Shown: positions 17,208-63,112 of the stretch, piece by piece
Numbering within the stretch: position 1 is the first letter of the stretch
Layout: each line of letters opens with the position of its first letter
NCBI GenBank assembly: GCA_965215555.1
Contig: OZ244071.1
Location: 2,517,647 to 2,581,646, forward strand
Length of the DNA stretch: 64,000 bases
Direction of reading: 5' to 3'
Source: Dehalococcoidia bacterium
Lineage (GTDB): Bacteria > Chloroflexota > Dehalococcoidia > Bin125
The notes under the pieces: model-generated
The model's database searches: none
What the model saw: only the letters and a program-made list of their open reading frames with translations
Told to the model about the DNA's origin: nothing
Translations under genes and position numbers: made by a program

Positions 17208-18629
17208 ATGTCGGCCATTCAGTCGGAGAAGCAAGAGATCGCGCAGATGGCGCACCTGATGCGTCGGGCTGGGTTTGGCGCGTCGCGCGACGACCTGGAA
17301 CGGCTCGTGGAGCAGGGCTACGAGGAGACTGTCGAGCAACTGGTCGACCCACCTGCGCACGTTCCTCGAGCCGACCTCTACGAGCTCTTCCGCTACATGC
17401 CGTCGCTCGAGACCGGTGGTCCAGTCACCATTCCTGGCGCGGCCAACTGGCTCTACCACCTGATCAATTCGCAGCGGCCCTTGGAAGAGAAGATGGCGCT
17501 CTTCTGGCACGGCGTCTTTGCGGTCGGTAACTCCAAGGTCGACAACGACAATCACCTGATCGCGCAGATCGACATGTTCCGCGACCACGGAACGGGCAGC
17601 TACCGCGACTTGTTGATCATGCTGGCCCAGAACCCGGCCATGATTTACTGGCTCGACAACCATGAGAACCACAAGCGTTCGCCCAATGAGAACTGGGGCC
17701 GCGAGCTGCTCGAGCTGTTCTCGATGGGCGTCGGCAACTACACCGAGAAAGACGTCTTCGAGTGCGCCCGCGCCTTCACCGGCTGGACGTTGGGCCCGAA
17801 GATCCCGCGCGTGCCCAATCACCGCTTCTTCTTCCAGTTCGAGTTCCGTCCCGAGGAGCACGACTTTGGCGAGAAGGAGTTCCTTGGGCGCAAAGGCAAC
17901 TTCGACGGCCTCGACATCATCGACATCATCCTCGAGGAAGAAGCCTGCCCGCGCTTCATCGCCCGACACCTGTACAACTTCTTCGTCGCCGACGAGGCCC
18001 AGGTTCCCGCCTGGAACATCGAGCCGCCGAATGACCCCGAAGCGATCGATTACCTCGCAGGGGTGTTCAAGGACTCCAACTTCGAAATCAAGCCGGTCCT
18101 ACGGGCGCTGTTCAACTCCGACTTCTTCAAAGATGCGACCTTCCAGAAGGTCAAGAGTCCGGTCGAGACCGTCGTCGGCACGCTGCGCCTGACCGAGCAC
18201 ATGGCGGGTCCACAGCTCGACCTGATCAGCCTCGGCCAGGAGTCGGCCCACATGGGTCAGAGTCTGCACAACCCGCCTTCGGTCGAAGGCTGGCAAACCG
18301 GGCGCGACTGGATCAACTCTGGTGCCGTGGTCGGACGAATCAACTTCGTCGCCGACCGCGTCAGTAACACCGAGCTGCCGGGCGTTCAGAAGATCGTTAA
18401 GCGAGTCGCCGCTGCGAATGGCACCACGATGGAGCCGGCGGAGATGGTCGACCATTGCCTCGACCTGATCGGCCCGCTCAATGTGGCGGATGTCACCAGG
18501 CTCGAGTTGATCGAACACGCAACGGAGCAGGGCGACCTCTCCTGGAGCGACGACTACGACGGTTCCTCCGAGCGCGTCGGCGAGATGCTCGCCCTGATCG
18601 CGGCAACGACGGAGTACCAGTTTGGGTAG
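17208..18629 (+). CDS. DUF1800 family protein
   Basis: Characteristic MRRAGFGASRDDLERL..., WLDNHENHK..., ELFSMGVGNYTEKDV... architecture. Paired with DUF1501 downstream. Confidence 0.8.
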   Translation: MSAIQSEKQEIAQMAHLMRRAGFGASRDDLERLVEQGYEETVEQLVDPPAHVPRADLYELFRYMPSLETGGPVTIPGAANWLYHLINSQRPLEEKMALFWHGVFAVGNSKVDNDNHLIAQIDMFRDHGTGSYRDLLIMLAQNPAMIYWLDNHENHKRSPNENWGRELLELFSMGVGNYTEKDVFECARAFTGWTLGPKIPRVPNHRFFFQFEFRPEEHDFGEKEFLGRKGNFDGLDIIDIILEEEACPRFIARHLYNFFVADEAQVPAWNIEPPNDPEAIDYLAGVFKDSNFEIKPVLRALFNSDFFKDATFQKVKSPVETVVGTLRLTEHMAGPQLDLISLGQESAHMGQSLHNPPSVEGWQTGRDWINSGAVVGRINFVADRVSNTELPGVQKIVKRVAAANGTTMEPAEMVDHCLDLIGPLNVADVTRLELIEHATEQGDLSWSDDYDGSSERVGEMLALIAATTEYQFG

Positions 18630-18727
18630 GGCCGGTTTTTGGGGACCCTCACCCTAACCCTCTCCCAGAGGGAGAGGGGATCAGAGAATGTTGGTCTCCC
18701 TTCAATGGAAGAGGGGATCAGAAAGGT

Positions 18728-19885
18728 ATGGACATGACAACTGCCAGCAAGGATCCGGTTGTCGTCATCATTCAGTTGACCGGCGGCAACGATTACATGA
18801 ACAGCGTGGTGCCCTATGCCGATGGACACTACAACGACGCCCGCAACGGCGATCTCTGCATTGGCGAGGACGAGGTCCTCAAGATCAACGACCACTTCGG
18901 CCTGCACCCGACGATGGCTCCTCTCAAGGAGATCTACGACCAGGGTGAGATGGCGCTGATCCACGGCGTCGGGTATCCCAACTCGCCGCGATCGCACTTC
19001 CGCTCGATGGACATCTGGCACACCTGTGAGCCCAACAAGGTTGGTACCGAGGGCTGGGTCGGCCGTGCCATCCGCGACCTTGATCCGTCCGGCGAGAACC
19101 CGGTCACCGGGGTCCACATCGGACAGGGCCTGCCCCGCGCGCTGGTCTTACCAGGTGTGACTGTCGCATCTGTCGCCGACCTCTCGACGTACGGTCTCTT
19201 GACCGGCATCGAGCAGCAGCGCCAGCGCGAGAAGATGCTCGAGCGCTTCGTCAACATGTATGGCCGTGCGATCGGCACCGGAAACGTCAAGGAGTACCTC
19301 GGCCGCACCGGACTCGACGCACTCAAAGGCGCCGACATCCTCAAGGAAGGCCTCGGTCGCTACGAGACCTCCGTCGAATGGGGACCTGAGCAGATCTCGC
19401 GCAGTCTCAAGGACATCGCCACGATCCACTGCGCCGACCTCGGTACGCGCGTCTTCTACACGCAGCTCATCGGCTTTGACACCCACGCGAATCAGAAGCC
19501 GGTCTTCGAGAAGCTCTGGACCGACCTCTCGCGAGCCATCTCAGACTTCTGGGACGACGTCAAAGCGCACGACCGCGATGACAACGTGATCATGATGCTG
19601 TTCACCGAGTTCGGCCGCCGCGTGCGAGACAACGGCTCCGGTTCCGACCACGGCGCCGGCGGCGGAGTCTTCGTACTCGGCCCGCAGGTCAAGGGCGGCA
19701 TGCACGGCGAGTTCCCCAGCATCAATCCCAAACACCTCGAACAGGGCGACCTCGTCCCCAACCACGATTTCCGCGGTGTCTACTCGACGCTGCTTGAGGA
19801 CTGGATGGGTCTCGATGCCAAGCCGATCGTCGATGGTGAGTTCGAGAAACTGAGTTTCATCGAGCCGCTGATGGCGACTGCATGA
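18728..19885 (+). CDS. DUF1501 family protein (sulfatase/alkaline-phosphatase-like superfamily)
   Basis: VVIIQLTGGNDYMN..., HGVGYPNSPRSHFRSMDIWHT..., FTEFGRRVRDNGSGSDHG... ATG 18728 after GAAAGG. No obvious Tat signal. Confidence 0.8.
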   Translation: MDMTTASKDPVVVIIQLTGGNDYMNSVVPYADGHYNDARNGDLCIGEDEVLKINDHFGLHPTMAPLKEIYDQGEMALIHGVGYPNSPRSHFRSMDIWHTCEPNKVGTEGWVGRAIRDLDPSGENPVTGVHIGQGLPRALVLPGVTVASVADLSTYGLLTGIEQQRQREKMLERFVNMYGRAIGTGNVKEYLGRTGLDALKGADILKEGLGRYETSVEWGPEQISRSLKDIATIHCADLGTRVFYTQLIGFDTHANQKPVFEKLWTDLSRAISDFWDDVKAHDRDDNVIMMLFTEFGRRVRDNGSGSDHGAGGGVFVLGPQVKGGMHGEFPSINPKHLEQGDLVPNHDFRGVYSTLLEDWMGLDAKPIVDGEFEKLSFIEPLMATA

Positions 19886-49754: not shown

Positions 49755-52175
49755 ATGACACGGTTCTTCAAACAGGCGCTCGGCGCCGGTCTTGCGTTGC
49801 TCGTGGCCGCGGCCATACTGATCGGCTGCTCGGACGATGATCAGGCTCAGCAGCAACAACAGCAACAGGAGCAGCAGTCGAGTACGGCTGCGTCGACTCC
49901 ATCGAGCTCGTCCCAGGATCAGGACCAGCAACAGCAGCAACAAGAACAACCGCAGCAGCAACAGCAGCAGCGGATGGTGTCAGGCGAGCCGCTCAAGATC
50001 GTCGTCTCGACCCAAGTGATCGCCGATTGGGTGCGCCAGGTCGGTGGCGAGAACGTCGAGGTCATTGCCCTCGTTCCCGCCGGCGCCGACGCACACACGA
50101 TCGAGCTGAGCGTCGCTGACATCCGTGCCGTCGCAGACGCCGACCTCGTGATCATCAACGGAGCCGGCCTCGAGGCCTCATACGAGGACGCCGTCCTCGA
50201 GAATGCCGACCACGTTCTCAACCTCGCCGAAGCGATCGAAGAGGCCGGCTTTGAGCTCGCACCGTTCGGTGCCACGGAGATGGCTCACGACGACCATGAT
50301 GACCACGACGACCACGACGACCACGGCGACGAAGAAATGCACGACGACGATCACGGTTCGGCCGAGGCCATCGGCAGACTGTTGATCGCTGACGCGATTG
50401 AGGCGCATCTCTCCGTCATCGACCTCTCACACGAGGAAGTCGACAGCGGACTGTTCTCGATTGCCGCCCCAGGCGCCCGAGTCTTGCCAAGTCCGACTCA
50501 CCGTTACGGCTTCGTCCTCGCGCGTGGACCTGAAGACAACGACGACCGCGTCCACATCTTCGACGGTGGCCTGTTCCTGGTTGAGCACGGAGACCACTTC
50601 GACCTGGTCCGGGAACCGGTCAGCCGCCACTCGCTCGAGATCGTCGAAGAGAACCCGATTCACTACGTCAACAGCCACGGCTGGACGGCGATCTTCGCCG
50701 ACACCAGCGGTCACGTGATCCTGATCAACGAAGCCGATCTGACCAGCGCCACGGGCGACTACGAGCCGATCGTGCTCGAGGCTGGACCGCACCACGGCGC
50801 AGCGCTGGTCATGACCGACGAACACGTTGTGGTCACGACCAAGAACACCGACGATCTGGAAGACGCACTGCCGTTCGGCGTCGAGGTTCGCACCTTCGAC
50901 GACGAGGTCGTCTACGACGCCAGCAACCGCTCTTGCCCAGGCATGCACGGCGAGTCGCACAACGAGCATGGAGCGGCCTTCGGCTGCATCGGCGGCGTGC
51001 TCTTCCTGCACGCTCACGATGGTGAGTACGAGCATGAGTTCATCGCCAATCCGCCCGAGATGCGCGAAGAGTCACGAATCGGCTCGGTCTACGGACACCA
51101 CCACGTCGAGCACTTCTTCGGCAAGGCCTCTTACTTCGATGGCCAGGGCTTCGCTGACGACGGCATCTGGCTGATAGACGTCGCCCACGGCGAAATGAGC
51201 CAGGTGTTCAGCGAACCGAGCGTTTCGGCGAAGTTCTCCAGCGATGGCGAAATGCTGTACGTGCTCGGCACTGACGGCATCCTCCATGCGCTCGACGCGC
51301 ATGACGGCGAGCTGCTCGACACCATGGAGCTGGTCGCGCCGGGCGAAGCTGGAAATCCCGCCATGATCATCGTTGGCGAGATGATGTACGTCGCCGACCC
51401 GAACAGCGGTCATGTCCTTGCCGTGCACCTCCACGACATGGAGATCGAAGAGGAATGGGAAGTCGGTGGCGCACCGTCGAGCTTGGCTTTCGTTGGCGTA
51501 GTTGATTCGCACGACTCGCCCGACGCCGGCCACGACGACCACGACGAAGAAGAGCACGAACAGGACGATCACGGCCACGACGACGAGGAAGATCACGAGC
51601 AGGATGATCACGGCCACGACGACGAGGACGATCACGAGCAGGATGATCACGGGCACGCCCACGATCATGGCGACGAGGATCCGCACTTCTGGTTCGACGC
51701 CGACCTGGCCGCTGTCGCCATTGAGGCAATCGCCGTAGAACTCAGCCACCTGAACCCGGGTGCCGCTGACACCTTCAGCGACCGTCTCGACCTCTACCTC
51801 GCCCAAATCGAGGAAGCCGACGCTGAAGTGCGTGCGCTGCTCGAAGGTGTGACCGACACCCAGCGTCTACTGGTCACGTTCCATGATGCATTCGGCTACT
51901 TCGCCCGCCGCTACGGCCTCGAGATCGCCGGCTTCGTTGTCGAGGGACCAGAGCAGGGGATTAGCGCAGGGGCGTTAACTGAGCTGATCGAACTCATCGA
52001 ACACGAAGGCGTGGAAACGGTCTTCCATGAGCCACAGTTCGACTCAGCGATCCTCGACACCGTCGCCGACGAAACTGGAGCTGGTCGCGGAATCATCTGG
52101 TCGCAGCCGACCGAAGACAACCCGACTTACATCGGCATCCTCGTTGGCAACGCGAAGGCCATCGCCGAGCAGTAA
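49755..52175 (+). CDS. ZnuA/TroA-like metal-binding lipoprotein (SBP family 9) carrying a roughly 400-aa insertion flanked by two His/Asp-rich tracts
   Basis: Lipobox LIGCSDDD plus a Q-rich linker. N-lobe KIVVSTQVIADWVRQVGGENVEVIALVP..DAHTIE. C-lobe DPHFWFD...FHDAFGYFARRYGLE...HEPQF. Between them, from the first His/Asp tract (50285-50345) to DPHFW, lie about 440 aa including a repeat-containing domain and the His-rich coding repeats at 51527-51690. Confidence 0.7.
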   Translation: MTRFFKQALGAGLALLVAAAILIGCSDDDQAQQQQQQQEQQSSTAASTPSSSSQDQDQQQQQQEQPQQQQQQRMVSGEPLKIVVSTQVIADWVRQVGGENVEVIALVPAGADAHTIELSVADIRAVADADLVIINGAGLEASYEDAVLENADHVLNLAEAIEEAGFELAPFGATEMAHDDHDDHDDHDDHGDEEMHDDDHGSAEAIGRLLIADAIEAHLSVIDLSHEEVDSGLFSIAAPGARVLPSPTHRYGFVLARGPEDNDDRVHIFDGGLFLVEHGDHFDLVREPVSRHSLEIVEENPIHYVNSHGWTAIFADTSGHVILINEADLTSATGDYEPIVLEAGPHHGAALVMTDEHVVVTTKNTDDLEDALPFGVEVRTFDDEVVYDASNRSCPGMHGESHNEHGAAFGCIGGVLFLHAHDGEYEHEFIANPPEMREESRIGSVYGHHHVEHFFGKASYFDGQGFADDGIWLIDVAHGEMSQVFSEPSVSAKFSSDGEMLYVLGTDGILHALDAHDGELLDTMELVAPGEAGNPAMIIVGEMMYVADPNSGHVLAVHLHDMEIEEEWEVGGAPSSLAFVGVVDSHDSPDAGHDDHDEEEHEQDDHGHDDEEDHEQDDHGHDDEDDHEQDDHGHAHDHGDEDPHFWFDADLAAVAIEAIAVELSHLNPGAADTFSDRLDLYLAQIEEADAEVRALLEGVTDTQRLLVTFHDAFGYFARRYGLEIAGFVVEGPEQGISAGALTELIELIEHEGVETVFHEPQFDSAILDTVADETGAGRGIIWSQPTEDNPTYIGILVGNAKAIAEQ

Positions 52176-52205
52176 GTCGACCATTGGCAGCTAGGCTGAA
52201 CAGCG

Positions 52206-52784
52206 ATGTCAGATCGACTCGCAACACCTCAGCCGAAGCAGTCCAAGCACAACATGGTCTGGATCGACCTCGAAATGACGGGGCTCGATCCAGGCCGTGA
52301 CGTGATCATCGAAGCCGCCGTCCTGATCACCGACGCCGAACTCAACATCATCGCTGACGGCCCAGACTTCGCGATTCAACGCAGCAAAGAAGAACTCAGC
52401 GTGATGAACGCCTGGAATCGGCGCACCCATTACGGCTCTGGGTTAATCAAGCGAGTCAACGCCTCCGATGTGACCATCGAGCAGGCTGAAGAGGAAATCC
52501 TCGAATTCGTCCGGCAGTGGACGACCGAAGGCGACGCGCCCCTCTGCGGTAACTCCGTCCATCAAGACAAGCGGTTCCTGTATCTGGAGATGCCGCGTCT
52601 GGTTGAGTGGCTCAACTACCGAATCGTCGATGTCTCGACCGTCAAAGAACTGGCCAAGCGTTGGTATCCGGACCTGGAGAAGTTCGTCAAGCAGGAACAA
52701 CACCGAGCCATGGATGACATCCGCGAGTCCATCGACGAATTGCGCTGGTATCGGCAGCAGATCTTCAAGAACGCTGAACAGTAA
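52206..52784 (+). CDS. orn: Oligoribonuclease
   Basis: MVWIDLEMTGLDP..., CGNSVHQDKRFL..., DEDI exonuclease motifs. Confidence 0.9.
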   Translation: MSDRLATPQPKQSKHNMVWIDLEMTGLDPGRDVIIEAAVLITDAELNIIADGPDFAIQRSKEELSVMNAWNRRTHYGSGLIKRVNASDVTIEQAEEEILEFVRQWTTEGDAPLCGNSVHQDKRFLYLEMPRLVEWLNYRIVDVSTVKELAKRWYPDLEKFVKQEQHRAMDDIRESIDELRWYRQQIFKNAEQ

Positions 52785-52801
52785 GCGCCGGCGTCTGCCG
52801 C

Positions 52802-53791
52802 CTACTCTCGCCAGGGTGCCAATCGGGAACCGACACGGCAACACGCACCCCAGCACACTCCCCCGAGTAGGCAGCACATCCCCCAACACACGCGAGGAGT
52901 GCGTTGCCATCCGGGAAAGTCTCCACCCTGGCCGACAGCCGCGCTCAGGCCGAAGTTGGGCAGCGCCTCGCGTAAGCCTCGTGGGCTGAGCACAAAGATG
53001 ATCCCCAGCAGCAAGACCGCAGTGAGCACGATCGAGGGTCCGGCCGCAAAGTCGAGGTGGAACGACGCATACAGGCCAAGCACCGTCGACACGATGCCGA
53101 TCAATGCCGCAAACAGCATCATTGTGGTCAACTGGCGGGAGATCAGCACCGATGCCGCGGCCGGAGTCACTAGCATCGCCACCGCCAGAATCACGCCGAC
53201 CAGCCGAAACGCGACCACGGTCGCCAGTGCGATCAGGACCAGTAGTCCGATCTGCATCAGTGTCACCGGCACGCCCGAGACCTCGGCCACCTCTGGGTCA
53301 TAGGCGGTAAACCGCAGCTCGGGCAGGAACGCCAACACCGCGATCAGCACCACGCCCGTCAGGATCGCCATCACGATCAGATCAGTCCACGACGCGCCCA
53401 GGATGTGCCCAACCAGCAACGAGCCCAGATCAACCGCGAACGTTCGCTGCCGAGAGATCAGCAGCACGCCCAGGGCGAAGAACCCGGCGAACATGATCCC
53501 AATCGCTGTGTCTTCTCGCAGCCGACCGCGAAGCGTCAGCAGCGCGACGCCCAGCGCTGTCAACACCGCCGCGATGCCCGCGCCGAGCGTAATCAGGACC
53601 GTGCCACCGCCCAGCACCAACGCCACCGCCGCACCGGCGAGTTGCGTATGAGCCACCGCGTCGCCCAGAAATGCCAGGCCGCGCAGGACGACAAACACGC
53701 CAACCATGCCCGCAGCCACCGACACCACGATGCCAGCCAACAGGGCGCGCTGCATGAATTCAAACGACCACGGGTCAGTCAGCCAGTCCAC
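52802..53791 (-). CDS. Metal ABC transporter permease, ABC-3 family (ZnuB/TroC-like), with unusual Cys-rich C-terminal tail
   Basis: Typical ABC-3 TM pattern (LAFLGDAVAHTQLAG...). Last about 45 aa (CWGMCCLLGGVCWGACC) lie beyond the usual family length. Confidence 0.75.
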   Translation of the reverse strand: MDWLTDPWSFEFMQRALLAGIVVSVAAGMVGVFVVLRGLAFLGDAVAHTQLAGAAVALVLGGGTVLITLGAGIAAVLTALGVALLTLRGRLREDTAIGIMFAGFFALGVLLISRQRTFAVDLGSLLVGHILGASWTDLIVMAILTGVVLIAVLAFLPELRFTAYDPEVAEVSGVPVTLMQIGLLVLIALATVVAFRLVGVILAVAMLVTPAAASVLISRQLTTMMLFAALIGIVSTVLGLYASFHLDFAAGPSIVLTAVLLLGIIFVLSPRGLREALPNFGLSAAVGQGGDFPGWQRTPRVCWGMCCLLGGVCWGACCRVGSRLAPWRE

Positions 53792-57480: not shown

Positions 57481-57578
57481 CTGCCAACGTGTCGCAGCGC
57501 CTCGCAGCGCCTCGCAGCGCCAGGTCGTAGAGTGAAGTTGCCGACCCAGGAGATATTCGGTTAGATGGGTGGAGCGCG

Positions 57579-58040
57579 ATGACAGATGTTGAACGAGTCA
57601 GTGACGACGATCTGCAACAGGCGTCCGAGAAGAATCTGAACAAGATGCGCAAGTTCGCGACCAACTTCGCGAACAAGAGCGGCTCCTACCTGCATCCACA
57701 GGAAGACATCACCGAGTTTTTGGTCATCGGACTGGCCAAGCACATCGACGACTACGGCCGTCCGCTCTGTCCCTGCAACTTCTACGAGGACAAGGCTGAA
57801 GAGGTCAAGGAATCCACCTGGATCTGTCCCTGCGAGGAAATGCAGCGTTGGAAGTACTGCCATTGACTGCTCTTCTGCGATGAGGAAGGTCTTCCCATCA
57901 CCGAGCACCTACCCAAAGATCACGAAGGCGTCCAGATCTACGGAATCCGCCCCGACCCCCATCCGGACAAGGGCCGAGCCCTCGGCCGCCTGGAAGAACA
58001 AAGCGGTCGCAAGATCGACAAACGCAAACGCCGCGACTAA
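57579..58040 (+). CDS. Ferredoxin:thioredoxin reductase catalytic-subunit-like protein with in-frame UGA at the third Cys of the CHC motif (candidate selenoprotein; alternatively a nonsense pseudogene)
   Basis: MRKFATNFANKSG...GRPLCPCNFYEDKAEEVKESTWICPCEEMQRWKYCH-TGA-LLFCDEEGLPITEH... aligns to FTRc CPC..CPC..CHC-LLF. 57 further in-frame codons (GC3 about 70%) run to TAA 58038-58040. Confidence 0.55.
57879..57899 (+). ncRNA. SECIS-like hairpin (GAUG-A-GGAA-GGUC-UUCC-CAUC) 12 nt downstream of the in-frame UGA
   Basis: 8-bp stem with one bulged A and a GGUC tetraloop. The GGUC loop and 5' bulge resemble E. coli fdhF bSECIS, offset by one codon. Confidence 0.3.
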
Positions 58041-58047
58041 CCCTACG

Positions 58048-58274: not shown

Positions 58275-58577
58275 ATGGCCCGAACTTCGAATATCCATCG
58301 CGACCTCAAGCGCCGCGAAATGCACGCCAAGTACAAGGGCCGCCGCGAGGCGCTCAAGCAGCAGCTCAAAGAATCAAACAATCCGCGCGAGAAGCAGAAC
58401 ATCCAGTTCCAGCTCCAGGCATTACCGCGCAATAGCTCGCCCACGCGGATCAAGAATCGCTGCGCCGTGACCGGTCGCCCCCGCGCCTACATGCGCAAGT
58501 TCGGCCTCAGCCGCATTACCTTCCGCGAGATGGCCTCGCTCGGACTCCTGCCCGGCGTCCGCAAGAGCTCTTGGTAG
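58275..58577 (+). CDS. rpsN: 30S ribosomal protein S14, long non-zinc (C-) form, stand-alone copy
   Basis: [28 protein letters not shown]...[39 protein letters not shown]. Only one Cys, so not the Zn-ribbon type. Confidence 0.9.
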
Positions 58578-58705: not shown

Positions 58706-60016
58706 ATGTCTGGACACCTCCTCTCCCTGAATCGCTTGCAAGTCTTACGGGGCCTCGTTGTTCCCCTAGCGCTTGTCCTCGCCGCTGTAATCGCGCTAAG
58801 CGCCTGCGCCACCGACGACACCGAAACAACCGAAGCCGCCGATCGAGCGGCACAGGCCGCCGAGCGAGCCGCCGACGCCGCGCAACGAGCGGCCGCCGCT
58901 GCCGAAGACTCGGGGCAGAGCGGTTCGCAGGCCGCCGATCGCGCTGCTGATGCAGCCACGGACGCTGCCCAGGCCGCCGGCGATGCCGCCGATGCTGCTT
59001 CCCAGGCCGCAGACCGAGCCGCTCAGGCCGCGCAGTCCGCATCGGCAGCCGCCAGCAGCACGGCACAGGACGAGCCGATGGAGGACGAGGATCCAGGCGA
59101 ACTCACCATCTACTCCGGTCGTGGCGAATCGCTCGTCGGCCCGATCATCGAGCGCTTCGAGGATCTGACCGGCATCAACGTCCGCGTTCGCTACGCCGGC
59201 ACCGCAGAACTGGCTGTGGCGATTCTCGAAGAGGGCGACCGGTCCCCAGCCGACATCTACTACGCACAAGACGCCGGTGCGCTCGCGGCACTCGCCGAGA
59301 ACGGCGCGCTGACCCAGCTCCCCGACGACATCGTCAGCAGCGTGGCAGCAGAGTTCGCCGACGCTTCCGGTCGCTGGGTCGCCACCTCAGGCCGAGCGCG
59401 AGTCCTGATCATCTCCCCCGACCGTGTACCGAACCCGCCGACGTCCGTCTTCGATCTTGTCGACCCTGAATGGCGTGGACGAGTCGGTTGGGCGCCGACC
59501 AATGGCAGCTTCCAGGCGTTCGTCACCGCTATGCGTCAGATTCACGGCGATGAAGCGACCGAAGAGTGGCTGCGCGGCATGATCGACAACGATGTCAGGG
59601 TCTATCCCAAGAACTCGCCCCAGGTCCAGGCGGTCCACGATGGCGAACTCGACATCGGACTGGTCAACCACTACTACCTGATTCGCCAGACGTCCGTCAA
59701 TTCCGACTGGCACGGCGTCAACCACTTCACCGATCCGGGCGAGGCGGGCGCGCTGATCAACATCGCCGGTGTCGCATTGCTCAACGCGTCCGACAACGAC
59801 GACAACGCGCTGCGCTTCGTTCGCTTCCTGCTCAGCGAGGAAGGTCAGACCTACTTCCGCGAGGAGACATTCGAATACCCGGTCGCGGCTGGCGTCGAGG
59901 CCTGGCCAACCCTGGTTCCACTGGATGAGCTCAACCCGCCGTCGCTGGCATTGACATCGCTCTCCGACCTCGAGGGCACGATCGCGCTGCTGGAAGAAGT
60001 CGGCGCGCTGCCCTAA
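58706..60016 (+). CDS. Iron(III)-type ABC transporter substrate-binding lipoprotein (FbpA/AfuA-like) with long Ala/Asp/Gln-rich linker
   Basis: Lipobox ALSACATDD. Roughly 90 aa of AADRAAQAAER... low complexity. LTIYSGRGESLVGPIIERFEDLTGINV...YYAQDAG SBP_bac_1 body. Confidence 0.75.
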   Translation: MSGHLLSLNRLQVLRGLVVPLALVLAAVIALSACATDDTETTEAADRAAQAAERAADAAQRAAAAAEDSGQSGSQAADRAADAATDAAQAAGDAADAASQAADRAAQAAQSASAAASSTAQDEPMEDEDPGELTIYSGRGESLVGPIIERFEDLTGINVRVRYAGTAELAVAILEEGDRSPADIYYAQDAGALAALAENGALTQLPDDIVSSVAAEFADASGRWVATSGRARVLIISPDRVPNPPTSVFDLVDPEWRGRVGWAPTNGSFQAFVTAMRQIHGDEATEEWLRGMIDNDVRVYPKNSPQVQAVHDGELDIGLVNHYYLIRQTSVNSDWHGVNHFTDPGEAGALINIAGVALLNASDNDDNALRFVRFLLSEEGQTYFREETFEYPVAAGVEAWPTLVPLDELNPPSLALTSLSDLEGTIALLEEVGALP

Positions 60017-60051
60017 GGCGTGTTCACATGGGGCCGCTCAGCCCAGGAGGT

Positions 60052-60250
60052 CCCGTCATACGCACTGAGATATCCGTCATACCCGCGCCAACAAGAGATT
60101 GTCATACACGCCCCAGCAAGCGATCGTCATACCCGCGCCAACAAGAGATCGTCATACCCGCGCTTGCCGCGGGTATCTCGCTGTATTCAGCACAACTGTC
60201 TGTGCAAGACTCGACGAGATTGCCGCGACAAGCGCGGCAATGACGGAATT
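60052..60250. repeat. Tandem array of about 25-bp units (gtcatacccgcgccaacaagagatc x4) ending in hairpins cccgcg-cttgc-cgcggg and attgccgcg-acaag-cgcggcaat, then the aatgacgg terminus
   Basis: Direct reading. Related modules occur at 58048-58162, 38608-38667 and 22959-23012. Confidence 0.6.
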
Positions 60251-60414
60251 CTGGTTAAGCGGATGGCTAGTGTGAACACGCACTAGCCGACTGCCGAAAG
60301 CTAGCCCCCACCCCACCCATCCAGAGCGTTCTGGAAGAGCACTGCCTCTCAGTAACACCAGAGCATGAAGGGACAGCACTCTTTCCCAGTGAAACACTCC
60401 GATAACCTCGCTCC

Positions 60415-62022
60415 ATGACCATCTTTGGCGGTACCGCCGAGCTCCCGGCTCGACTCCGCGTCAACATCCCCATCATTTGGATGCTCGCGTTGGCCGCAGC
60501 CGGCGCCGCCTGCATTCCCCTGGTCTATCTCATCATCCGCGCCGCCGAAGCCGACGCAGACGCATGGTCCAAGGTCGTCGCCGACAGCACATTACGACTG
60601 CTGCTGAACACCGCCGGGTTGGCGGCAGCCGTCACCGCCGCCTCCGCCGCGCTGGCGCTTCCAATGGCCTACCTCACCGAGCGCACCGACCTCCCCTTCG
60701 CCCGCGTCTGGCGAACCATCACCATCATGCCCCTGGCCATCCCCTCGTATGTGGGAGCATTCGCATTCATCATTGCCCTTGGCCCGTACGGTTCGCTGCA
60801 GGACCTGCTCGCACCGCTGGGCGTCGAGAATATTCCCAGCATCTACGGATTCGTCGGCGCCTGGCTGACCCTGACCCTGTTCACCTTCCCCTACCTGTTG
60901 TTGGTCGTCCGGGCCGGACTCCGCGACCTCGACCCGGCCATCGAGGAAGCGGCTCGCTCCCTCGGACAATCAGCCTGGGGTACATTCTGGCGCGTGACGG
61001 TACCGCAGCTCAGGGTTCCCATCGCCGGAGGATCTCTGCTGGTCGCGCTCTACGTCATATCCGACTTCGGCGCCGTCTCGATGATGCAGTTCGACACGTT
61101 CACCCGTGCAATCTACGTCCGCTTCGGATCGTCGTTCGACCGTTCCAGCGTGGCCGTCCTATCCCTCGTCCTGGTCGCGTTGGTCGCCCTGGTCCTGGCC
61201 ATCGACTGGTCCCAACGACGGAGCGCCAAATATCATCGATTGGGTACTGGCGCAGCGAGAACGCCAAGATTGGTCCCGTTGAGACGACTCCGTTGGCCGG
61301 CGTTGATCGGGCTATGCGCCGTCTCAGCCATCGCGCTGCTCGTCCCGATCGGCGTGCTGTTTCACTGGCTCTCGGTGGGCCTGCAAAACGGAGAGACATT
61401 CCCCGGTGTCTGGAGCGCAGCGCTCAACTCTGTCTACGCATCAGCACTGGCCGGCGCAGTGACGGTCGCGGTCTCGATTCCGATTGCCCTCGTCGTCGTC
61501 CGTCGACCTGGATTCCTCTCCCGGATCGTCGATCGAGCCGCCTACGTCGGCTACGCATTGCCAGGTGTGATCGTCGCATTCGCATTGATTTTCTTCACCT
61601 TGCGGGTCACACCGGGCCTCTACCAGACCATCGCCACGCTCGTTTTCGCCTATGCGGTGCTCTTTCTGCCGCAGGCGATTTCCGGTGTGCGCGCTTCAAT
61701 GGTCCGCGTGCAGCCAGGACTCGAGGAAGCGGCTCGTTCACTCAATCGCACTCCCTGGCAAACCTTCTACAGCATCACTCTGCCGCTCATCGCACCAGGC
61801 GTGCTGGCAGCGTTCGCCCTCGTCTTCCTGACGACCATGAAGGAGCTGCCCGCGACCCTGCTCCTCGCGCCGATCGAGTTCGACACCTTGGCGACTACCC
61901 TTTGGGGACACCAGGAAGACGTGTTCTTCGCCCGCGCCTCAGCCGCAGCATTGCTCCTGCTCGCCTGCGCCGCACTACCAATGATGATCCTGTTCGGACG
62001 CGACCGTGAACTCCGAGCCTAG
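60415..62022 (+). CDS. Iron(III) ABC transporter permease, fused two-domain (FbpB-like)
   Basis: 535 aa, two BPD_transp_1 halves each with an EAA loop (EEAARSLGQSAW / EEAARSLNRTPW). Confidence 0.85.
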   Translation: MTIFGGTAELPARLRVNIPIIWMLALAAAGAACIPLVYLIIRAAEADADAWSKVVADSTLRLLLNTAGLAAAVTAASAALALPMAYLTERTDLPFARVWRTITIMPLAIPSYVGAFAFIIALGPYGSLQDLLAPLGVENIPSIYGFVGAWLTLTLFTFPYLLLVVRAGLRDLDPAIEEAARSLGQSAWGTFWRVTVPQLRVPIAGGSLLVALYVISDFGAVSMMQFDTFTRAIYVRFGSSFDRSSVAVLSLVLVALVALVLAIDWSQRRSAKYHRLGTGAARTPRLVPLRRLRWPALIGLCAVSAIALLVPIGVLFHWLSVGLQNGETFPGVWSAALNSVYASALAGAVTVAVSIPIALVVVRRPGFLSRIVDRAAYVGYALPGVIVAFALIFFTLRVTPGLYQTIATLVFAYAVLFLPQAISGVRASMVRVQPGLEEAARSLNRTPWQTFYSITLPLIAPGVLAAFALVFLTTMKELPATLLLAPIEFDTLATTLWGHQEDVFFARASAAALLLLACAALPMMILFGRDRELRA

Positions 62023-63112
62023 CCAACCGGACACCACTCCCGCGCTAGTCGTGAGCGAGATCTCCAAGTCGTTCGACGGGACCGACGCCGTGAACGACGT
62101 CTCATTCGAGGTCGAACAGGGAGAGATTCTCGCCCTGCTTGGTCCCAGCGGCTGCGGCAAATCAACCACCCTGCGCGTCCTGGCCGGCTTCGAGCGTCCA
62201 AATCAGGGATTAGTCCAAATCAACGGCGAGACCGCAGTCGGTCCCGCTCTGTGGCGCTCACCCGAGCAGCGTCGGATCGGGATGGTCGCACAGGACTTCG
62301 CCCTGTTCCCTCACCTCAGCGTCGGCGAGAACATCGCCTTCGGCCTGCCCGATGGTCATCACGCCTGGTGGACCAGGCAGCTACGTCGACTTTCGCGGGC
62401 GGAAACACCGATTCGAGTCCGCCACATGCTTGAGCTGGTCGGACTCGACGGCTTCGCCGATCGCTATCCACACGAACTCTCCGGCGGCGAGGCGCAGCGA
62501 GTCGCGCTGGCCCGAGCGCTCGCCCCACAACCGGCCGCCGTCCTGCTCGACGAACCGTTCAGCAACCTCGACCAAAATCTCCGCGCCAATCTCCGACTCG
62601 CCATGCGCAACATCCTCAAACACGCCAATACCGCCGCAGTATTCGTCACCCACGACCGCGAGGAAGCCCTTTCCCTCGCCGACCGCGTCGCCGTCATGCG
62701 TAACGGCCGGATCGAGCAGATCGGCGCGCCCGATGACATCTACTACCGACCCGAAACCCGGTTCATCGGCACATTCGTCGGCGACGCCAACATCCTGCCC
62801 GGAGAACGGGTCCGCGGAGGCGCTGAGACTGAGCTAGGATTCGTCGTCGTGAACCCGGCGGAGGAGACGACGGGCAAGAGTATCGATGTGCTGCTGCGTC
62901 CCGAGCAAATCGCCCTCAGGCCATGCCGCTCCCCTGGGCCCGAATGTGCCAACGTCATCAGCAGCGAATATTACGGCCACGATCAAGTCGTTCGAGTGAG
63001 ATTGCAATCAGGCCAGGAAGTCGAAGCCAGACTCCGAACCGAAGTGGTCTGGCATCCCGACGATCCAGTCGACGTCATCGTCCTCGACGACGCCATCGCC
63101 TTCCCTCGCTAG
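62006..63112 (+). CDS. ABC transporter ATP-binding protein (FbpC/PotA-like) with C-terminal TOBE domain
   Basis: GPSGCGKST, LSGGEAQRVALARAL, LLDEP. Overlaps the permease by 17 nt. Confidence 0.85.
   Translation: MNSEPSQPDTTPALVVSEISKSFDGTDAVNDVSFEVEQGEILALLGPSGCGKSTTLRVLAGFERPNQGLVQINGETAVGPALWRSPEQRRIGMVAQDFALFPHLSVGENIAFGLPDGHHAWWTRQLRRLSRAETPIRVRHMLELVGLDGFADRYPHELSGGEAQRVALARALAPQPAAVLLDEPFSNLDQNLRANLRLAMRNILKHANTAAVFVTHDREEALSLADRVAVMRNGRIEQIGAPDDIYYRPETRFIGTFVGDANILPGERVRGGAETELGFVVVNPAEETTGKSIDVLLRPEQIALRPCRSPGPECANVISSEYYGHDQVVRVRLQSGQEVEARLRTEVVWHPDDPVDVIVLDDAIAFPR

Follow-up and report, generated by a model that had tools for sequence, protein, structure and literature searches.

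Among the bacterial selenocysteine insertion sequences (SECIS), the closest described counterpart of the element treated here is that of Escherichia coli fdhF, whose minimal hairpin spans nucleotides 15-31 as counted from the U of the UGA, carries a bulged U17 and presents G23 and U24 in its loop (PMC8659212). A generic description of bacterial SECIS (bSECIS) elements is given by the bSECISearch consensus model, the criteria of which, as summarised in PMC13188914, are a stem-loop within an open reading frame (ORF), directly 3' of an in-frame UGA, a loop of 3-9 nt, an upper stem of 4-16 bp, a G in the first two loop positions, a spacing of 16-37 nt, and a minimum free energy (MFE) no higher than -7.5 kcal/mol. 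The element in question lies on the forward strand of a 64,000-nt stretch of DNA, hereafter the window, from a Dehalococcoidia bacterium (assembly GCA_965215555.1, contig OZ244071.1, positions 2,517,647-2,581,646). Within the window, an ftrB-like coding region contains an in-frame UGA at 57864-57866, which is followed by a hairpin at 57879-57899. It is very probable that this hairpin is a functional bSECIS that serves the UGA upstream of it.

The protein family has a selenoprotein record of its own. Selenoproteins of the ferredoxin-thioredoxin reductase (FTR) family were reported in 2008 from the Global Ocean Sampling metagenome as two sequences, one of which had two selenocysteine (Sec) residues (Zhang & Gladyshev; PMC2398784), and COG4802/FtrB is listed as "CxU" in reviews of 2022 and 2026. 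In the active-site disulfide of FTR, one sulfur attacks thioredoxin and the other serves as the fifth ligand of a cluster iron (PMC3838966); the nucleophile is the Cys of the first motif (bioRxiv 10.1101/2022.10.17.512470). As for the bacterial group, two Dehalococcoidia metagenome-assembled genomes (MAGs), with 46 and 49 selenoprotein genes, are in the top ten of BSepDB, for which the search for selenoprotein genes was confined to species that had been scored positive for the Sec pathway (PMC13326102).

The ftrB-like gene and its in-frame UGA

Translation of 57579-58041 (forward strand) gives 95 codons, an in-frame TGA, 57 further codons, and a TAA stop. An earlier reading of the locus, made from the sequence only, had placed the UGA in frame, and the 153-codon ORF (counting the UGA) bears this out. 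The read-through protein is matched by Pfam PF02943 (FeThRed_B, the FTR catalytic chain) with an E-value of 1.7e-25 and 89.6 bits against a cutoff of 22, and by solved FTR catalytic chains (7BZK, 1DJ7, 2PUK, and others) with E-values of 8e-26 to 5e-20. The product is accordingly annotated here as a predicted FtrB-like [4Fe-4S] disulfide reductase, homologous to the catalytic subunit of FTR. The alignment with 1DJ7_A is ungapped, query residue q corresponding to chain residue q-9, so that C64/C66, C83/C85, and C94/U96 of the query fall on Cys55/57, 74/76, and 85/87 of the chain, and the UGA is aligned with Cys87. The CPC-X16-CPC-X8-CHC motif is therefore present, with U substituting for its final residue: the UGA, codon 96, replaces the second Cys of the CHC motif, which is Cys87 of Synechocystis FTR. 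Since the nucleophile is the first-motif Cys and the other sulfur ligates the cluster iron, the Sec would be the cluster-facing partner of the redox-active pair. A basic C-terminal extension runs roughly 50 residues past the region that aligns to solved FTR chains. The second cluster-ligand motif (57825-57833) reads CPC in the subclade of the window and CAC in many other Sec and Cys forms (loci L046-L080 and L083-L123), so that the Pro of this motif is not essential in this FtrB family.

Homologs were drawn from two scans. The one-genome-per-species scan gave 80 best-matching loci, all in Dehalococcoidia/Chloroflexota MAGs, and a metagenome scan seeded with Cys forms gave 79 loci in which the motif was found (38 Sec and 41 Cys forms). 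The Sec-form set thus holds 117 sequences (78 genome loci, 38 metagenome loci, and the window), and the Cys-form set holds 43. TGA is kept at the same codon in 78 of the 80 genome loci, the other two having TGC, and in 38 of the 79 metagenome loci, where the remainder have TGC or TGT. Besides the window, the UGA recurs across 116 independent assemblies or contigs, and it is paired at the catalytic residue with Cys, encoded by TGC or TGT, in the 43 Cys-form loci. Among 79 Sec forms (genome loci and the window), the ratio of nonsynonymous to synonymous substitution rates (dN/dS) is 0.149 over the 60 codons before the UGA and 0.151 over codons +10 to +45 after it, with dS close to 1. Equal values on either side indicate that the frame is translated through the UGA. 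A genome-wide reassignment of TGA was considered and rejected, as TGA is the ordinary stop of 15 of the 44 putative genes in the window.

Publicly, the gene is mis-annotated, either as a truncated ORF of 95 residues or with the UGA read as Trp. In the public protein sets, P0065 and P0082 are 95-aa truncations ending in "...KYCH", P0082 representing 75 member sequences, and P0001 reads "CHW", with the TGA translated as Trp.

The hairpin downstream of the UGA

The hairpin, GAUG-A-GGAA-GGUC-UUCC-CAUC, is made up of GAUG (57879-57882), a single A (57883), GGAA (57884-57887), GGUC (57888-57891), UUCC (57892-57895), and CAUC (57896-57899), and it is separated from the UGA by 12 nt (57867-57878); UGA, gap, and hairpin are letter for letter what the sequence-only reading had reported. 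Folding of 57864-57910 with ViennaRNA returns the hairpin as it had been drawn, together with a G57877-C57901 pair and a 5-bp outer helix, at an MFE of -13.4 kcal/mol, while the minimal hairpin alone reaches -8.1 kcal/mol; folding energy by itself would not single the hairpin out. The apical element GGAAGGUCUUCC (57884-57895), a 4-bp upper stem capped by the GGUC loop, is invariant and is the presumed site of contact with the selenocysteine-specific elongation factor SelB. Below it, a single A on the 5' strand (57883) is bulged in the fold of the window sequence. The outer helix (57868-57872 with 57903-57907, plus G57877-C57901, spanning 57868-57907) is a possible extension to which the 47-nt fold lends weak support.

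Set against the bSECIS model, the stem-loop lies inside the ORF and directly 3' of the in-frame UGA, with a 4-nt loop on an upper stem of 4 bp (8 bp counted across the bulge). The loop opens with GG and then U, an arrangement that is invariant in 115 of the 117 Sec forms, the other two having a GGA loop. From the UGA to the apical loop there are 21 nt (57867-57887), where 16-37 are allowed, and the energies of -8.1 kcal/mol (minimal hairpin) to -13.4 kcal/mol (47 nt) lie below the limit of -7.5, which is a weak criterion. Agreement with the generic model means little, since 37% of window TGA triplets pass it (222 in a sample of 600). Of the 2,024 TGA triplets in the window, 1.0% have a GGUN tetraloop on at least 4 bp behind them, and the fdhF-like geometry in full is seen after a single triplet, the UGA of ftrB.

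Because the hairpin lies inside a conserved peptide (DEEGLPIT), its conservation has to be judged at synonymous sites. Codons +6 to +9 (GAG GAA GGT CTT) show zero synonymous entropy across 79 distinct sequences, and GAT is used for codon +5 in 53 of 54. Elsewhere in the same sequences, Gly and Leu codons have entropies (H) of 1.1-1.8 bits, with GGC, CTC, and CTG preferred. Over codons +1 to +9, dS is 0.20, five-fold lower than in the remainder of the gene; the stretch in which synonymous variation disappears coincides exactly with the codons of the hairpin. The hairpin codons are rare in this genome. In the window genes, GGT has a share of 19% among Gly codons, CTT of 6% among those for Leu, GAA of 37% among those for Glu, and GAT of 30% among those for Asp, and under this usage the chance of D-E-E-G-L being written GAT GAG GAA GGT CTT is 8e-4.

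The hairpin is restricted to the UGA forms. Its 12-nt core, GGAAGGTCTTCC, is found in 115 of 117 Sec forms vs. one of 43 Cys forms (Fisher p = 5.6e-35, a value overstated by kinship), and the two remaining Sec forms have a different hairpin. The expectation that orthologs retaining the UGA would also retain the hairpin is thus borne out, and 42 of the 43 Cys homologs lack the core. On average, the apical helix has a probability of 0.86 in Sec forms and of 0.06 in Cys forms, which encode E-G-L/V by GAG/GAC, GGC/GGG, and CTG/GTG, among others. In a structure test on an alignment of 79 sequences (A1), the hairpin and outer helix together have 91.9% of cells paired, as opposed to 25-52% on moving the partners 1-3 columns out of register, and neither the pairing nor the covariation score of the real alignment was attained by any of 500 shuffles. 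The core helix has 94% of its alignment cells paired. Pairs of the lower stem compensate, namely 19-33 (GC 36, UG 12, CG 7), 16-36 (GC 37, AU 5), and 18-34 (UA 53, CG 1). The register of the bulge shifts among orthologs, some of which bulge an A or a C and some a G or U in a shifted place, while others lack a bulge (e.g., L042, CCGGAA-GGUC-UUCCGG), and the bulge is therefore not a conserved recognition element here. In the outer helix, 88% of cells are paired, but double-sided changes are absent and two of the pairs are disrupted in 15-16 of 60 distinct sequences; a ribosome halted at the UGA would hold the 5' strand of this helix within it.

These comparative data support the SECIS-like interpretation first put forward from the sequence, and they are consistent with the following course of events. 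With a ribosome at the UGA, the hairpin would stand just outside the mRNA entry channel, where the GGUC loop on its 4-bp upper stem could be presented to the C-terminal domain of SelB. SelB would then deliver Sec-tRNA(Sec), and the UGA would be read as selenocysteine rather than as a stop. The expected product is an FtrB-like [4Fe-4S] disulfide reductase of 153 residues with Sec96, in which a Cys66-Sec96 selenenylsulfide would form the active site beside the cluster.

Several results weigh against assigning the hairpin this function. Its stability is not exceptional (z = -1.20), with 28 of 200 dinucleotide shuffles folding as well. The four apical pairs never vary and so provide no covariation evidence of their own, and the sequences compared are phylogenetically related, so that the counts and the Fisher p overstate their independence. 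A permissive Rfam search over 57820-57960 gave chance matches (E above 3), none of them to a SECIS family; at gathering scores, Rfam had no match in the whole window. A tRNA-Sec search over the window and 60 loci returned no tRNA genes, and Pfam searches of 20 window ORFs, including all of a size fitting SelB, SelA, or SelD, revealed no selA, selB, or selD. Indirect evidence for a Sec pathway comes, on the other hand, from the selenoprotein-rich Dehalococcoidia MAGs of BSepDB. A strict descriptor (TGA plus GGUN tetraloop) applied to the window and the locus DNA recovered only ftrB, plus 24 matches in nonsense frames, and no second selenoprotein gene; a window scan for other genes with in-frame UGA based on GC content at third codon positions gave nothing convincing.

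To these points is added a competing fold. RNAalifold gives as its consensus a structure in which the invariant block 57884-57894 (alignment columns 21-31) is the 5' arm of a helix with 57903-57913, with GGUC buried inside it. The window sequence prefers this fold in 47- and 70-nt contexts (P = 0.60-0.88), and it is the better one in 21 of 70 distinct Sec-form sequences, marginally including that of the window, where the two are about equal (-8.3 kcal/mol vs. -8.1 kcal/mol for the SECIS hairpin). All changes observed in its 3' arm keep the pairing. These compatible changes, however, are two-fold-site transitions facing G or U, of a kind that cannot break a pair, and no double-sided compensatory change is seen. 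The 3' arm (codons +13 to +16) has normal, near-maximal synonymous variation (H = 0.82-1.83 bits), and the loop of the alternative, CCAUCACC, lacks the G that the bSECIS model requires. The hairpin at 57879-57899 is the better fold in 49 of the 70 sequences, with a mean of -9.5 vs. -8.4 kcal/mol when the RNA outside the paused ribosome is folded. With its 3' arm free at synonymous sites, no compensation, and a loop lacking G, the alternative was rejected as the selected structure, for which role it is improbable. It may compete kinetically with the SECIS or modulate its formation; no sign of selection on it is seen.

It is more improbable still that the hairpin was selected for some other role at the RNA level, such as ribosome pausing, mRNA stability, or a SelB-independent read-through of the stop codon. 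Such a role would agree with the fact that no Sec machinery was seen in the window or the locus DNA examined, and SelB binding is inferred. It would leave unexplained why the hairpin is tied to a UGA at the position of a catalytic Cys and decays upon reversion to Cys (locus L109, below), why its loop and spacing match the SelB-binding hairpin of fdhF, and why Sec and Cys are exchanged at a redox-active residue, a hallmark of selenoproteins, in a family already catalogued as such. Least credible of all is a by-product of the conserved peptide D-E-E-G-L-P-I and shared ancestry, with the UGA as a genuine stop, an error of sequencing, or the lesion of a pseudogene, which could draw on the conservation of E-G-L-P-I-T in Cys forms, on the modest folding z-score of -1.2, and on the gene callers that end the protein at 95 aa (P0065, P0082), but which is contradicted by Cys forms that write the same peptide with many different codons and form no hairpin (P = 0.06), by a dS of about 1 elsewhere in the gene set that makes zero synonymous change inexplicable by shared ancestry, and by a UGA found in 116 independent assemblies or contigs with purifying selection downstream of it.

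Probable exchange of selenocysteine and cysteine, and the genomic neighbourhood

A neighbour-joining tree of 157 core sequences was built without support values, and the counts of gains and losses taken from it are provisional. In this tree, 113 Sec forms make up one clade, whose only Cys members are L100 (Ga0187849_1001958) and L109 (Ga0209777_10089378). The nearest neighbours of both are all Sec forms, at identities of 0.81-0.84 vs. at most 0.78 to Cys forms (with the residues encoded by the hairpin masked). L100 combines a Cys codon with an intact GGAAGGTCTTCC core and a Cys at position +4, and it appears to carry a fossil SECIS. In L109, GGC CTC stands in place of GGT CTT and the core has drifted to GGAAGGCCTCCC, towards preferred codons; here, the hairpin is seemingly decaying after a reversion to Cys. 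Two TGA carriers, L135 (Ga0137829_11874301) and L138 (Ga0114945_10167720), are placed among the Cys forms, with identities of 0.88-0.90 to these and no higher than 0.74 to the Sec clade. Each was found on a metagenome contig of its own, and apart from the masked hairpin residues the two core proteins do not differ. Their hairpin differs from that of the main clade, being GUAAACCC-GGA-GGGUUUGC, with 8 bp, -9.5 kcal/mol, and a distance of 17 nt from the UGA. This suggests an independent switch from Cys to Sec with a SECIS of its own.

A second residue co-varies with Sec across the family. The TGC codon at 57876-57878 encodes a Cys at Sec+4 (U-L-L-F-C), and a Cys at this position is found in 112 of 117 Sec forms vs. 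two of 43 Cys forms, these two being L100 and L109, which have reverted. Val stands at +4 in five Sec forms, always encoded by GTA (3.8% of the genome's Val codons), where Cys forms have GTC or GTG. Three of these Val forms (L080, L101, and L105) branch at the base of the Sec clade. When Val and Leu codons were substituted in silico for Cys(+4), GUG, GUA, and GUU folded at least as well, and no clear reason for a UGY codon here was apparent from folding. Tentatively, and with better odds against it than for it, these patterns could be drawn together in one history: Cys87 of FtrB would have been exchanged for Sec at least twice independently in Chloroflexota, the SECIS arising largely from synonymous changes in pre-adapted E-G-L-P codons; at least two reversions would have left fossil hairpins; and Cys(+4) would have arisen later in the main Sec clade, which would hint at a new Cys-Sec-Cys active site by the [4Fe-4S] cluster and at ligation of Fe by Se in the one-electron intermediate.

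The neighbours of ftrB are a PAC2 gene and a ribosomal protein S14 gene, with no variable-subunit gene adjacent. The S14 gene (58275-58577, 100 aa) lies directly downstream and is followed by a solute-binding, permease, and ATPase set of the ATP-binding cassette (ABC) type at 58706-63112. Upstream, an 806-aa protein with two ZnuA-like stretches adjoins an ABC-3 (ZnuB-like) permease (49755-53791). The ZnuA/ZnuB-like and ABC genes around ftrB may constitute a metal-homeostasis neighbourhood; no link between it and selenium was seen in the window. The 98-nt gap between PAC2 and ftrB contains a perfect tandem duplication of CCTCGCAGCG at 57500-57519. Farther away (17208-19885), about 175 nt are shared by a DUF1800 ORF and a DUF1501 ORF. 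Of the 390 positions in the DUF1501 profile, only 239-353 are matched, by residues 326-439 of the 476-aa ORF, the true start or frame of which is uncertain for this reason. In two relatives, L064 (~2393, minus strand) and L104 (~893, minus strand), a conserved stretch of the locus DNA, in another frame, encodes D-A-A-F-F-G-G-E-V-V-A-V-V-G-G-G, which we take to resemble the FAD/NAD(P) motif of the thioredoxin-reductase type. This likeness suggests that a thioredoxin reductase-like gene may lie near ftrB in some relatives.

Comparison with known SECIS elements and FTR proteins

The evidence for the ftrB locus is good, but the case is an ordinary one, since neither the type of signal nor the selenoprotein family is new, and the known picture of how Sec decoding works is unchanged by these results. 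What is added is a large single-Sec clade of Dehalococcoidia missed by the NCBI model, a precisely delimited SECIS, and a pattern of gain, loss, and fossils. Recognising the SECIS restores a full-length redox enzyme to a widespread Dehalococcoidia group (78 UGA-bearing one-genome-per-species loci). The data set is also a natural illustration of selection at the RNA level on synonymous sites, and of how a SECIS may be gained, fossilised, and lost by decay. Selenium is predicted to stand at the residue which, in the catalytic cycle of FTR, becomes a ligand of a [4Fe-4S] iron, and this may be of interest to enzymologists.

Like the fdhF SECIS of E. coli, the ftrB element lies in the coding region after the UGA and has a GGUC tetraloop, a 4-bp upper stem, one bulge on the 5' strand, and then a lower helix, and its folding energy is near that of fdhF (-13.4 vs. 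-14.9 kcal/mol over 48 nt). The sequence-only reading had proposed this likeness, describing a bulged U and the loop G23/U24 of fdhF in agreement with the published review (PMC8659212), and its count of a one-codon shift is correct: GGUC occupies nt 25-28 from the U of the UGA, as against 22-25 in fdhF of E. coli K-12, where the UGA is codon 140. The GGUC loop and the strand of the bulge uphold the likeness, while the identity of the bulge does not, being an A that varies in orthologs rather than the essential U17. Besides this unconserved bulge and its location 3 nt further downstream, the ftrB element differs in having a lower helix of 4 bp, vs. 2 bp by reading of the fdhF sequence, and stem sequences unrelated to those of fdhF. 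It mimics the apical hairpin of fdhF but is not of the fdhF sequence type. Compared with the generic bSECIS model, with all four constraints of which it agrees, it is far more constrained, its 12-nt core being invariant in 115 of 117 Sec forms.

With the FTR selenoproteins described to date, the gene product shares the protein family PF02943. NF041072 ("FtrB family double-selenoprotein"), the only NCBI selenoprotein model for the FtrB family, does not capture this clade: the window protein scores 43.2 bits against an equivalog cutoff of 160, it has one UGA, and its first redox Cys (the CPC nucleophile) stays Cys. The score sets the clade of the window gene apart as a separate, single-Sec one. 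In contrast to the known FTR selenoproteins, this clade abounds in Dehalococcoidia/Chloroflexota (78 among the 80 best-matching genomes), has a basic C-terminal extension, and usually has a Cys at Sec+4. With the Cys-type FTRs of Synechocystis (1DJ7) and Arabidopsis (7BZK), the protein shares the CPC-X16-CPC-X8-CH[C/U] spacing without gaps, which implies that the same [4Fe-4S] ligands and the same redox pair as in canonical FTR are probably in use. It differs from them in having Sec in place of Cys87, in lacking an adjacent variable-subunit gene, and in its non-photosynthetic host.

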